A stretch of 64,000 nt of DNA from Escherichia coli (GTDB lineage Bacteria > Pseudomonadota > Gammaproteobacteria > Enterobacterales > Enterobacteriaceae): assembly GCF_045037415.1 (NCBI RefSeq), contig NZ_CP173438.1, one strand, 5' to 3'. The position numbers are program-made. How positions within the stretch are numbered: position 1 is the first letter of the stretch; the number at the start of each line of letters is the position of its first letter. This document shows positions 27,101 through 33,100 of this stretch, piece by piece.

Positions 27101-30100
27101 GGCTGCGGCGAGAAAACGCCAAAATGTAGTAGTGATGATGCAAAAAATCTGGTCGGGGATATTGCAAGAAAGACAATCGAGAAAGGGATGAAACTGGATA
27201 AGGATGTGCGTATTTCTGTAGAAAATGTCAGAACAATTAGCCATGAATCAGATCTGGATGTTTATCAGTGCGCTGCTGATTTAACGTTTACAAAACCAGA
27301 TTTGCAAAATTCTCTACCAATCACCTACCGGATTCAGAAAACTGATGAGGGTAAAGGTCCGTTTTATATAAACGTAACAGGTTTATAATCACTGAATAAC
27401 ATCCGGGTTCCTTTTGGGTGAAATAATTCATGTTTTATTCCAAAAGGAAACCCTATGAAAAAGATCATCATATTTACCATTATAGCTATTATCACATTTA
27501 GTTGGCTCGTTACACACAATACAACTGAGTCCGAAAAAATCCCTCCTGCTAATACTCCCTTTATTATTAAGTCTAACGTACCTGGCATGTGCAAGGTCAG
27601 CGCCATCACAACCTCTACAGATACCAAACAGAATATACCTGTCGTAGCGTGCAAAATCAGCATTACGACCGCAATCACTTCCAGTACTACCAGTTACTGA
27701 TCACTGTGTTTACTTTACCGACAGACTGGGATACAAAAACGTCAAACACCTTCTCAATCAGTCTTATACCGTAAGCAATGCCGGGTGTGTCGGGCTCTGA
27801 GGGTTGATTAATTCCACAGGCATATGAAGACTAAATCCTACCATCCCCATACCTGCTGAGCCGCTCCGTTGAACATCTTTATCGCCTTGCTGTGGGTGCC
27901 AATCACGGCTATCCCCGCCCGTCTTGTAGGTTGGGGCTCACCAAATACGATGCCACTGGGAAGCTCTTTCAGTGTCACGTAATGCCATTTATAGCCCAGA
28001 TATGACCTGCTACTGAGCTAACTACATTGATTTGCCTAAATCCTGGGGCCTCTAAAGCGTCAGCGCCGCGCAGCAGTATAGGCAAGCCACTTTTAACGGG
28101 TTTTATCCGGCTCCCTGAGGCTGCTTTCAGAAAAGGCGTGTAATCGGATAACTACAGCAACCTAGGGAAGTATGTGCTTGTAGAATGAATGCAGTGGTAA
28201 TCAAGACTACCGCTTTTACAAACCCCACCAATCGTATAACTGCGATTTGATGGCTACCCATCCTAAGTTACTTCATTAAAATAGCACTATTTTTTGAGGG
28301 CAGCGGGATAAGGGCTCTGCGCTCTCCATCCATTGCATGTTCACCCGCAAACCATTCGTAATGAACTTTATTCATGATTGATACCGGCGGTTCTTTATTC
28401 TCTATAACTATGATTTGTAAGGTATCAGGCAATTGGGTCAGTGAATGCCAGAAGCCTTCCTCAATACCAGCCGATATGGGTTCATCGAAGCCCGATACCG
28501 TAGCAGCGGCTTTCTTCTTATAACTTGTCAGCGGTGAATCAATCACGACTAGCCCAGGATGCGGGTATCCTTTTTTAATACAATATTTTAGTAATCCAAT
28601 GATGAAAGCTGAATAAAGAATGGCACGAACACCTTTACCGTGAGACTGCCGAGGTTGTCCATCAACAATGATGTCATACTCTTTTTCATTAAATGAAACG
28701 TCAGGCTCGGCACCCCATTTCCAGTCTTTTAAAACAGTTTCAATTTCTCTACAAAGTTCGGCCAGCGTACGGGTAGATAATCCCTCCCATTCGAGCCGTG
28801 GTTGACTGCTCTTTTCCAGCAGTATTTCTATATCCTTTTGATGTTTTAGTAACTCAAACCATCTCTGTCGATCATTCAACTCAGAGTCTCTTTCAGCTCG
28901 CTGCTCAATAGCTAAATCTAGGCTTTCTTTGGAAAGTGTAAGAAGAGGCTCAAAAGTATATTTGATCTGGTTCTTCATTCCATCCAAGCTTTCTTTTGAC
29001 TTATATCTGTCTATATTCAGAGCTTCTTTTCTTCGGTCAAGATCACTCATCGCTTTTTGCAGGCCTGCAAGGTATCCATGAATTTTTGCAGCTTCAGCTA
29101 AAGAAGAACGTCGGACTTCATTACTGTTCATTAATTTTTTAGCGTTCTCACTGTGTGGATGTAGTAAATTTTGTCCACAAAGGGAACAAGGAACTTCCTG
29201 AAGTGAAGTGAAATAGTGAGAACCTTCGGAAATAAAATCCAACCGCTTCAGGTCGGAATGGTAACGTTCTTCTAATAGGCTATATCTCGATTGAATTTCA
29301 GATACTCCCATTAACTGAGATTCTATTTTTAACGTTAACGCTGTCTCCATTTTTATTCCCTCGAGCAAGTCAGAAATAGCGGCTGCAGCCCTCTCAACTT
29401 CATCAATTGCTTGTGCAATCAATTGATCTGATAAATCATCTGCTGAGCTCGTTAATGGAAACTTGGGCGAACAAATTGAGAAACGTTCATCAAGTGGTCG
29501 AATCAAATCCTGGATGAATTCAAGCTTCGCCATCAACCTCGCTTTTACAATTTCAGGCTTTTCCTCTACGGTAACACCACCATCATCGTGCCCGGTAAGG
29601 ATGTATGAAAACATGCGTTTTCGAGCAGTGTCGTCATAACCGGAACGTCCCGTTACTGGCGAGTATTCGTCGATAATGGATACTTCATCTACCAAAAATA
29701 TAGGAGCGAGCGTTCGAATCGAGAAACGTTGCGTTTCGCCACGAGCATTCTTGCGAAGCTTCGCCTCTTTGATCCCCGCAAAAGGGAAAAGTATGGACGT
29801 CACATCTGGCCCCTTACTCGTTCCTTTACGCACAGGAGCAATTATTTTACCTTCTCCATGGATGTCTTGAATAGCGACATCATGTGCCTCTAATTTCCCC
29901 CCCTCAAGACCGCGCTTGAGCGTTAACACCCCCCCTTCATCATTTTCGAATTCAACATAAAGATGGGTGTAATCGGTGGCCTCTTTAAGCTTTTTTTTGA
30001 GTTTTTCGGCACCAAGAATGTAGTCAAGACAACTCACAAGGTAACTTTTCCCAGTATCAGATTCCCCTGCTAGAATATTCGCACCCTTATAGAAATCAAC

Positions 30101-33100
30101 ATAAGCGTCTTGAACGCTGTTTCCGCGCAATAGTATTTTTCTTATACGAAGCATGTTATAAATCCAGTAGATCAATTGCGGTCAATCGGTCGAATTCAGA
30201 ACCCCATTGCCCCACATTCTGAGATATATATGAAGCAAGTTCTTCATCCGTATATTCATAGAATTGCTTTGTGACCCAAGAGGCACGTTCTGCGAGCTCT
30301 TTTGAATACTGTGACATCAAAAGCCGCACAAACCTTCCTGTTAAATTGGTAGCCTGATACAAAATACCTTCGGCAGCAAAGACAACCTTAATCAATTCTC
30401 TTGATAGCATTAAATGCAGCCCTGCCTGAATTGCGCTTCGCTTAACAAGAAGCTCTGCTCCCCGGTGAGGAACTGCTGGATGAAGGCTTTTAGGCCCCCT
30501 AGGTACGTCACTGGTATGCACAAGAAGATAGTCATACGAAACTATCCTTTGTAGGTCCATTGCTACATTGTCCGCTGCATCCAATATGAACAGAGCACGA
30601 AATCCATACTCCAGCGGAGTGTTAAAAGGTCTCTGCTCAAAGTTTCCTTCAAATACTTGCATTTCGCTCATGGATTGCACCAATTAATCAAGTTTGTATT
30701 GGCTAGTTGGTGGCATATACCTTCACGATCCTTATTCGTTACGTGAATGGCAAGTGGGTGCGCACCAAGTTGCAGGGTCTGAGCGGCCTTGACGGTATTT
30801 TTTAACCGAAGGAGTGGAGTCCCTGTCAGGTCAGAGGTGTAGTGATACAGACCATCATCAAACTCTACAAGTAAAGAATTAAAGAATTCTTGATTCGCCA
30901 TTTGGTCCCTAGCGAGTTCCTTTAGCCCTTCCGAGCAATAAAAAGTTATTCGGGACCGTTCAAAGAGTTTTACATGGCTGATACTTGATTGAAAATCAAC
31001 TAAATCTCGCACGTTGGTTTTGATATCAGCGCTGATAACTGAAAAGAGTTGTTCAATATATACAGTTTCAATGGGAGCCACAGATGATGGGGGCCTAGTT
31101 GGTGGATCCCGCTCAATTAATGGTGCGCCAAAGACCATAAGATGAAAAGAGGTTTTACTGTGTTCGGCAAGTATCTCAATAGGCTGTTTTGCATGAAAAA
31201 TACTAAAATCAAACTCTTTAATATATTTTTCAAGTTCAGGCGTCAGGTCAACACTATGTTTCGATGTAATTTGCTTTGAAAAAGTTGCCCACTCGGATAG
31301 CATTTTCTCTTTGAGTTTAGTTGGATCATCTAGGAGGTCTTGGAATGGCGATGTTACCCCTTTATGTGTAACAAAATGGTATTGTGTAGGTACTGTGTAG
31401 TCCTTGATGAAAGTATAATAGATAACTTTTGCAACTTCGATGCCTGCCTTAGGAAGGCCTAAATTCGCATCATAATGTTTGCATTGATATAAGTGCCATC
31501 TTCGAGGAACAGCATCAGATGGATCAAGCCATACAACAATATCTCTGCCTTTATCTCCTGCCCCGCCACGTTGTTGTACTTCGTTGACATATTGCTGACC
31601 AGCTAAGTATTCAGAGGCCCATTCGAGTGTAAACCTTTCAAATTCGGCGGCGCTAAACTGTGCCAGACGATCCAAGGGGGCTATTGGAAGCCCTACACCT
31701 AACCCAAGCAGCCGAGCGTTCGCACCCGGCCACGTTGTAGGAGCAGAAAGCGCGCCAAGCGTCGAACTTGAATTTTGTTTCATCTTCTCTACCACCACAA
31801 CCTCCATGGAGAAGTGATATTAAATCTTTAGTCTTTTAAAATTTTACAAAATCTAACACAGTGCGCCAGGAAAGTAATTGACTAAGGTTCCCCACACACA
31901 AGAGCAAATCTTAACCTTGCTACGGGACATAACTACTTCCGCCCCACCGGCTACCCAGTCATCGACAGTTTGGCAGCTCACTCCACTGTGCCGAGCATAA
32001 GCCTCTTTTGACATCAGCATTTTTATCTCTTTTCATAACCATCACTTTGATGGGTGTAGATTGATAAAATGTTTTTTGATTTCAATAATTGAATCAAGTA
32101 TGGGTTTGAATAATGAAAAATCGATAGTTTTTCTATTTTCCCTTACTATATAAGTAGCAAATCTATCTTTTCCAAATGTAGTAGAACTGTCATGATTATT
32201 GCTTTTATCGAAGCTTTTTCCATTATACTTCATTTGCAAAACTTTTGGTTCAAAAAAATCCTCTAGTGAAGAATAGTTATCCCCTGGTAATAACGGAGTA
32301 AAAAGAACATATAAATTACTCTCTAAGTGATAAAACGCCCCTTTTCTAACATCCTCCGCTTTTTTTGGTAGATGCGAATAATCCTTTATTATTTGATTTA
32401 TGAAGTCAGATGGCCCTGTGTCATTATCTAATAAAATTATCACTGGATTTTTAGGAGGCTGTTTTTCATACGCTTTACAAAGTAAACCATGTCGTCTGAA
32501 AAACCTCGAATAGTCTGCAGCTCCACCAGACAAATCGAGAAAATATTTTTTCTTGTCATTGGTTTTAAATAAATTAACTTTTAACACTCTATTCTTTGTG
32601 TTTTTTTCCTCTCTAACTAACTGAGGGTAATCCAAAAACAAAGAATCAATTGCACACTTAAGATAAACCGGGTCAGTTTTCCCTTCTGTTAAGATTGTTA
32701 TTTGCTCATTTCCATAGAAATTTTTATAGTATAGGAATTTGCTGTATGCTTTCTCTCTGGAGTTAAGTCTCTGCTTAAAATCCAACCCAAATCCTTTAAC
32801 CACATATCTCTCAGGACGCGCATTTTTCTTTGCTTCCACATTATTATATTTATCAAGCATATCGATAAATGCAAATCGCCCTTCTAATTCACTAAGGGTG
32901 CCCTTTCTATGTTTTCCATCTTTCTCAATAAGTGTATACGAACCTTCAAAGTATAAAGAATGCGCCATCGCTCTTGTATTCTTTATATACTCTCTGCTTA
33001 CATTTATTTTTTTATTTACAGTTAAACCTGTAACTTGCTGTCTTGATGTACACCTAGACACTCTGTTTTTATTATGGTTTAAAGTGAAGCCTGCACGATG

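Follow-up and report, generated by a model that had tools for sequence, protein, structure and literature searches.

The stretch of DNA analysed here (the window; 64,000 nt of Escherichia coli, RefSeq assembly GCF_045037415.1, contig NZ_CP173438.1) contains a cluster of three genes, lmuA, lmuC, and lmuB, arranged in this order on one strand (Table 1). The first-pass annotation of this DNA reported three open reading frames (ORFs) at 28268-31807, and they are present there on the minus strand. It interpreted them as a Lamassu (LmuA-LmuC-LmuB) or ABC-three component (ABC-3C) system with an effector of the restriction-endonuclease fold, and this interpretation is supported by PADLOC, Pfam, and protein fold matches. 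The operon is an experimentally validated, published Lamassu-Mrr system. It is already known, because the DNA cloned as SG108 from E. coli SE15 is identical, base for base, to positions 28167-32042 of the window.

Table 1. Genes and flanking regions of the Lamassu-Mrr operon in the window.
Feature	Coordinates	Strand	Description
lmuA	30668..31795	minus	N-terminal Mrr-type PD-(D/E)xK nuclease and C-terminal ABC-3C CTD6; most likely 375 aa from GTG 31795
lmuC	30156..30671	minus	Small middle component MC2, 171 aa from ATG 30671
lmuB	28268..30154	minus	SMC/Rad50-like ABC ATPase, 628 aa
Upstream non-coding region	31796..32042	minus	Inside the functional SG108 clone; presumably carries the native promoter
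3' flank of lmuB	28167..28267	minus	Inside the SG108 clone

The longest ORFs on the minus strand are 30668-31807 (379 aa), 30156-30683 (175 aa), and 28268-30175 (635 aa). Three start codons are available for lmuA: ATG 31807, which opens the longest ORF, GTG 31795 (375 aa), and ATG 31783, which is used by RefSeq (371 aa). The start is most likely GTG 31795, because GGAGG is located 5 nt upstream and the resulting length of 375 aa is that of most homologues. RefSeq starts lmuC at ATG 30671, generating an ATGA with a 4-nt overlap with the lmuA stop codon, and IMG starts it at ATG 30662 (168 aa). The RefSeq start of lmuB, ATG 30154, is 1 nt past the TAA of lmuC, and the alignment with the PADLOC LmuB model begins exactly at this Met. 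The TTG codons that open the longest ORFs of lmuC and lmuB have no Shine-Dalgarno sequence or other ribosome-binding site. The overlaps of 16 and 20 nt described in the first-pass annotation arise only from these TTG starts and do not hold, whereas the tight packing does. The 4-nt overlap and the 1-nt gap are also seen in the gene calls of orthologous cassettes from Serratia and Salmonella, and the gap is 2 nt in the cassette on a short contig of Ralstonia (L010). With such tight packing, translational coupling of lmuA, lmuC, and lmuB is probable.

The GC content is 43% in the operon segment, 32-36% in the adjoining retron region, and ~50-55% in the core flanks, in agreement with the earlier description of an AT-rich segment beside a retron; the adjoining gene encodes an Ec67-type reverse transcriptase (RT)-Toprim protein. 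Promoter and terminator consensus scans of 27900-32200 gave sites no more common than in shuffled sequences, with no convincing sigma-70 consensus, and an Rfam scan at the gathering thresholds found no RNA family within or beside the operon. Between the retron RT gene and lmuA, an ORF of 55 aa (31853-32020, minus strand) is located inside the defence-conferring fragment and has no RefSeq annotation. It was rejected as a gene, having no PADLOC match and only one, insignificant, Pfam match (YdaS_toxin, E 0.16). The stretch is probably a non-coding promoter region.

LmuA is matched by a PADLOC LmuA model over residues 40-378 of the 379-aa ORF (1.4e-105), and a second PADLOC LmuA model matches the C-terminal domain (CTD) alone (1.8e-11). 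Pfam assigns CTD6 (2.4e-34), while Mrr_cat is marginal (E 0.0021). Beyond the nuclease core, CTD6 is the only domain found by Pfam, with no recognisable reader domain for DNA modifications. The Mrr catalytic signature that had been noticed in this product is present, with GDKGRD and YQCKHY at residues 84 and 107, respectively, of the 379-aa ORF, and GGxGDxGRD and YQCK are invariant across 34 LmuA homologues with identities down to 30%, including a Bacillus cereus protein. The AlphaFold2 model (mean predicted local distance difference test (pLDDT) score 85.5) places a helical CTD after a nuclease core of alpha-beta-beta-beta-alpha-beta topology. The best PDB matches of this model in Foldseek were the solved LmuA chains of Vibrio cholerae and Salmonella, although weak (E 3e-4, template modelling (TM) score 0.27); LmuA and the solved chains are two-domain proteins whose domain orientations differ. 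The next fold matches were MspJI, Cap4, the Avs3 nuclease, and FokI. PDB sequence searches with LmuA, either with the single sequence or with the family profile, gave no match. LmuA has the N-terminal effector and the conserved Lamassu CTD that characterize LmuA proteins. Its effector is of the Mrr-type PD-(D/E)xK class that defines the Lamassu-Mrr subtype, based on the invariant D...QxK, the core of the model, and the matches to restriction-nuclease folds.

LmuB shows a PADLOC match of 2.8e-176, in which residues 8-625 of the 635-aa ORF align to model positions 2-609. In the ORF numbering, the Walker A motif GESDTGKS is at 37-44, CSLC at 330-333, and the Walker B motif LVVIDS at 542-547. In the 628-aa protein, Walker A is at 30-37, the CxxC cysteines are C323 and C326, a signature-like SHGKG is at 504-508, and Walker B ends at D539-S540. 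Across 33 LmuB homologues with identities down to 28%, no variation is seen at C323, C326, H332, the Walker A residues, SHGKG, or D539. In the AlphaFold2 model (mean pLDDT 83.7), coiled-coil helices extend over ~238-318 and 344-448, and the CxxC is located in the apical loop. The Walker A, Walker B, and CxxC (CSLC) motifs described earlier are therefore present, but the long coiled coil as in Rad50/SbcC is not; the arms are short, about 80-105 residues each. The architecture of LmuB is that of an SMC/Rad50-like ABC ATPase, in which a coiled coil separates the N-terminal Walker A from the C-terminal Walker B. Pfam gave only weak N-terminal P-loop matches (AAA_15, AAA_23, SMC_N). A single-sequence PDB search found no match, and only the LmuB family profile reached a solved LmuB, that of Salmonella (9hqu_A; 1.9e-16), with an alignment spanning almost the whole protein. 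Foldseek with the LmuB model found 9uxh_F (2.1e-16) and 9hqu_A (4.4e-16), with Rad50 and SMC structures ranked behind. In the structure prediction proposed earlier as a check, solved LmuA and LmuB structures are thus the best PDB matches of the respective models. Haudiquet et al. define short Lamassu by an LmuB of ~600 aa and a Walker B motif of hhhhD[Q/S/T/E]. An LmuB of 628 aa with the Walker B motif LVVIDS places the system among the short Lamassu by these criteria, as one that has a single zinc hook.

The middle gene product, LmuC, is matched over its full length by PADLOC LmuC (4.3e-57) and by Pfam MC2 (5.9e-54), and its RefSeq product name is 'ABC-three component system middle component 2'. 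A single-sequence PDB search with LmuC found no match. It is a small protein encoded between lmuA and lmuB, as expected for LmuC. Profile searches, also proposed earlier, therefore recovered all three components with PADLOC at full length, in addition to CTD6 and MC2 with Pfam. An ABC ATPase, an MC family protein, and an effector with an ABC-3C CTD constitute an ABC-3C system, and the RefSeq product names of two genes already read 'ABC-three component system' ('protein' and 'middle component 2'). In NCBIfam, none of LmuA, LmuC, and LmuB has a model of its own, and the only match was to recN, at the P-loop and below threshold. Assignment to Gabija, PARIS, or other ATPase-nuclease defence systems (GajA, AriA, or similar) is not supported, as the PADLOC matches are local to the P-loop (~45 residues, E 3e-4 or weaker).

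Positions 28167-32042 of the window are identical to E. coli SE15 (NC_013654.1, 1239719-1243594) at 3876 of 3876 nt, and the first 400 nt of the SG108 clone sequence map from window position 32042 downward. Compared with the SG108 listing, LmuA is identical at 379/379 aa and LmuC at 168/168 aa, and every listed residue of LmuB is identical. The window and SE15 share the RefSeq proteins WP_168876894.1, WP_001293316.1, and WP_000944508.1. Millman et al. (bioRxiv 10.1101/2022.05.11.491447; Cell Host & Microbe 2022) widened Lamassu to a family whose effectors vary, Mrr nucleases being among them. According to the preprint, the Lamassu-Mrr of E. coli O150:H5 SE15 was expressed from its native promoter in E. 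coli MG1655 and tested there. Its Table S2 lists SG108 as 'Lamassu-Fam' with a 3876-bp insert and observed defence (v), and labels the genes as Mrr nuclease LmuA, winged helix-turn-helix (wHTH) LmuC, and SMC LmuB. With phage SECphi27 in liquid culture, cells carrying the SE15 system were reported to be protected at low multiplicity of infection (MOI) and to collapse at high MOI, the pattern of abortive infection. For the tested Lamassu-family systems, the text of the preprint states that the ATPase site of the SMC protein, the effector site, and lmuC were needed for defence 'in all cases'. Plaque-assay evidence, which the first-pass annotation had asked for, is already available for the same DNA as SG108, and all the checks proposed there gave positive results.

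The cluster was found on the chromosome of 510 of the 5426 complete E. coli genomes (~9%), always at identity of at least 99%, and these appear to be ST131-type strains. Orthologous cassettes in other genera have different neighbours: a Gabija-like OLD-Toprim ATPase and a UvrD helicase in Serratia, nSTAND3 and Abi_alpha in Salmonella, and SMODS and SLATT in Ralstonia.

Some loci carry a disrupted lmuB. Among the 20 top-ranked E. coli genomes, 12 have lmuB split by an insertion sequence (IS) with lmuA and lmuC intact: IS1A at ~29011-29020 in 2 genomes, and ISEc52 at ~29148-29155 in 10 genomes. These insertions suggest lineage-specific loss of the ATPase. A 301-nt junction query matched 502 of 506 genomes at coverage of at least 80%, which does not reconcile with 12 of 20 being split; only the 12 cases directly seen are therefore counted. 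In two loci of Salmonella enterica (L007 and L008, ~8640-9950), lmuA and lmuC are intact, while lmuB is called only as a fragment of 190 aa or is not called, which suggests a decayed ATPase gene.

Taken together, it is very likely that the cluster is a short, type II Lamassu of the Mrr subtype (ABC-3C), defensive against phages, and working by release and oligomerisation of the effector in analogy with Cap4-type Lamassu. The mechanism proposed here follows three 2025 structural studies, in which the Cap4-type Lamassu systems of V. cholerae and S. enterica were examined by cryogenic electron microscopy and biochemistry. A dimer of LmuB, with folded coiled coils joined at the CxxC zinc hooks, and one LmuC would grip the CTD of a single LmuA, which would be kept as a monomeric, inactive nuclease. 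The LmuB heads and LmuC would sense either DNA ends or structures of phage replication, for example origins, palindromes, or hairpins; the Cap4-type complex binds to DNA ends in vitro and, in vivo, to the origin of phage replication (2025 structural studies). ATP binding and hydrolysis would free LmuA, and freed LmuA would oligomerise via its CTD, bringing the Mrr-type nuclease domains together. In the Cap4-type, the tetramer of freed LmuA forms the active nuclease site and degrades DNA non-specifically (2025 structural studies). The active nuclease would cut DNA indiscriminately, and the infected cell would be killed or arrested. This logic probably applies to the Mrr-type system, because LmuB, LmuC, and the helical CTD of LmuA are all present and conserved.

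Several points weigh against this interpretation. Sequence profiles of the LmuA family reach no relative in PDB, and the overall fold match to solved LmuA is weak. Because of this weak match, we infer the homology of CTD6 to the Cap4-type CTD, and a tetramerisation like that of the latter. Sequestration as LmuA1-LmuB2-LmuC1 has been shown for the Cap4-type only, and the sensing of a trigger by the Mrr-type system is extrapolated from the Cap4-type. The mutant requirement and the phage range for SG108 itself rest on the published wording 'in all cases'. The consensus scans pinned down neither a promoter nor a terminator.

LmuA with Mrr and CTD6 domains might also be switched on differently from the Cap4-type, through another oligomeric state or through a preference for modified or structured DNA like that of Mrr or MspJI; separately, lmuB might have been knocked out by IS elements repeatedly because the system is costly or autoimmune in ST131 lineages, which are rich in plasmids. 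We consider this reading unlikely. If LmuA is activated differently, a widespread ST131 system would represent a mechanistically distinct branch of Lamassu.

Other explanations of the cluster were compared with the Lamassu interpretation. The weak N-terminal P-loop matches (AAA_15, AAA_23, SMC_N, and recN at E 6e-4), and the Rad50 and SMC structures that come after LmuB in the Foldseek list, would fit a housekeeping DNA-repair ATPase of the SbcC/RecN/Rad50 type with unrelated neighbours. This possibility, raised in the first-pass annotation itself, was examined, and its probability is negligible. The recN match reaches 18.8 bits, below the cut-off of 407.85; no SbcC model matches, and LmuB is the best match at every level. 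Neither an SbcD nor an Mre11 partner is present, the cluster occurs in only the above 9% of E. coli genomes, within an integrase-bearing island, and lmuA, lmuC, and lmuB travel together across genera. Direct, non-suicidal restriction, in which the Mrr-type domain reads modified or foreign DNA as Mrr and MspJI do and the ATPase is a motor or regulator as in McrBC, is very unlikely. The Mrr_cat signature and the presence of modification-dependent MspJI and AspBHI among the fold matches point in this direction, but the collapse of cultures at high MOI described in the preprint of Millman et al. is a hallmark of abortive infection. Moreover, a recognisable reader of DNA modifications is missing from LmuA, and characterised Lamassu nucleases cut non-specifically after release.

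The main natural role of the system may be competition with plasmids or between mobile elements, instead of or besides phage defence. This is unlikely as the main role, because phage defence is directly documented for this very sequence in the preprint, and many ST131 genomes with an intact locus carry plasmids as well. On the other hand, V. cholerae DdmABC, a type II Lamassu, targets plasmids as well as phages, the cassette sits on a mobile island, and ST131 strains are plasmid-rich. It is highly improbable that Lamassu and the adjoining retron form one coupled system. The retron RT gene shares the strand of lmuA, and its stop codon lies ~250 nt upstream of the latter, but the Lamassu fragment alone, beginning at this stop codon, gave defence. 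PADLOC lists type I-C RT-Toprim retrons as single-gene systems, and no retron adjoins the orthologous Lamassu-Mrr cassettes of Serratia, Salmonella, and Ralstonia. Coupling was rejected on this comparative context and on the start of the clone. The different defence neighbours and the lack of a retron elsewhere indicate that the cassette is an autonomous mobile module and that its adjacency to the retron is ordinary clustering in a defence island.

The operon is located within an island of ~28.7 kb between ychF (5267-6358) and dhaR (35091-37019). The island (~6400-35000) is composite, with two tyrosine recombinase genes (6573-7748 and 22472-23401), IS fragments, DUF2339 and DUF3999 genes, radC, DUF2787, and several hypothetical genes. 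Eight small ORFs at 23902-27388 have no PADLOC match, and nothing links them to the Lamassu system. The retron Ec67-family RT-Toprim gene (32042-33814, minus strand) is directly upstream of lmuA; it matches PADLOC type I-C (5e-214) and NCBIfam retron_Ec67_fus (4e-211). Just upstream of the RT start is a perfect 13-nt inverted repeat (33831-33843 and 33947-33959) that could form the a1/a2 stem on the two sides of the msr-msd RNA. An Rfam scan at 33831-33959 gave no match. Relative to SE15, the window has an insertion of 2.26 kb at 8547-10806, which interrupts an ISEc24 transposase gene and encodes a group II intron reverse transcriptase/maturase (ltrA); an Rfam group II intron domain is at 10729-10815. 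The host is an ST131-type E. coli strain other than SE15, because this insertion is missing from SE15. Far from the operon and unrelated to it, the C0299 small RNA (Rfam, 111.9 bits; 63149-63227, minus strand) is an ordinary feature of the core genome.

The discovery value of the locus is small, as the family, the subtype, and the anti-phage activity have been published for the same sequence, and defence finders and RefSeq label it. A retron-adjoining Lamassu in ~9% of complete E. coli genomes bears on the host range of phage therapy against the pandemic ST131 clone.

The closest known system is SG108 of SE15. The operon shows no difference between SE15 and the window; the strains differ, that of the window being ST131-type, and the island of SE15 is without the group II intron insertion. 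A more distant relative is the Lamassu-Mrr of B. cereus 172560W (SG107), from Firmicutes, which has the same architecture, with GGAGDMGRD...YQCKHY in LmuA and CSVC in LmuB, at 30% identity for LmuA and 30% for LmuB. For SG107, Table S2 of the preprint (bioRxiv 10.1101/2022.05.11.491447) records no defence ('x') in the phage panel.

The Cap4-type short, or type II, Lamassu is represented by V. cholerae DdmABC (PDB 9ny5, 9nyg, and 9uxh) and S. enterica LmuACB (9hqu, 9hqx, and 9hr5). These systems share with the present one the gene order lmuA-lmuC-lmuB, an SMC/Rad50-like LmuB of ~630-660 aa, a small LmuC, and an LmuA composed of an N-terminal effector domain and a helical CTD. The effector domain is of the Mrr type here and Cap4/DUF4297 in the Cap4-type, and identities in structural alignments are ~15% for LmuB and 10-12% for LmuA. 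The invariant single CxxC of LmuB here has been lost in V. cholerae LmuB; in Salmonella LmuACB, LmuB likewise carries a functional zinc hook, which the system needs. The CTD of LmuA and LmuC here belong to the CTD6 and MC2 families, a Pfam assignment made for the proteins of this system alone. ABC-3C, with its ABC ATPase, MC2, and CTD6 effector, is the same class under another name and shows no difference: the former name comes from computational classification and Lamassu from experiments. ABC-3C conflict systems were reportedly described by Krishnan, Burroughs, Iyer, and Aravind in Nucleic Acids Research (NAR) in 2020.

SbcCD/Rad50-Mre11 is the proposed evolutionary ancestor of Lamassu. In both, a coiled coil with a CxxC zinc hook at its apex interrupts the ABC ATPase head, and recognition of DNA ends or palindromes is probably shared as well. 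The coiled coil is much shorter here, the Mre11/SbcD nuclease is absent and a released suicidal effector would replace it, and the system is accessory and island-borne. With Mrr and the type IV restriction endonucleases (Mrr_cat, PF04471), LmuA shares the D...QxK variant of the PD-(D/E)xK core. It differs from them in its marginal Pfam match and in having no N-terminal winged-helix or modified-DNA-reader domain; instead, a Lamassu CTD is joined to its nuclease core, which LmuB and LmuC would control.

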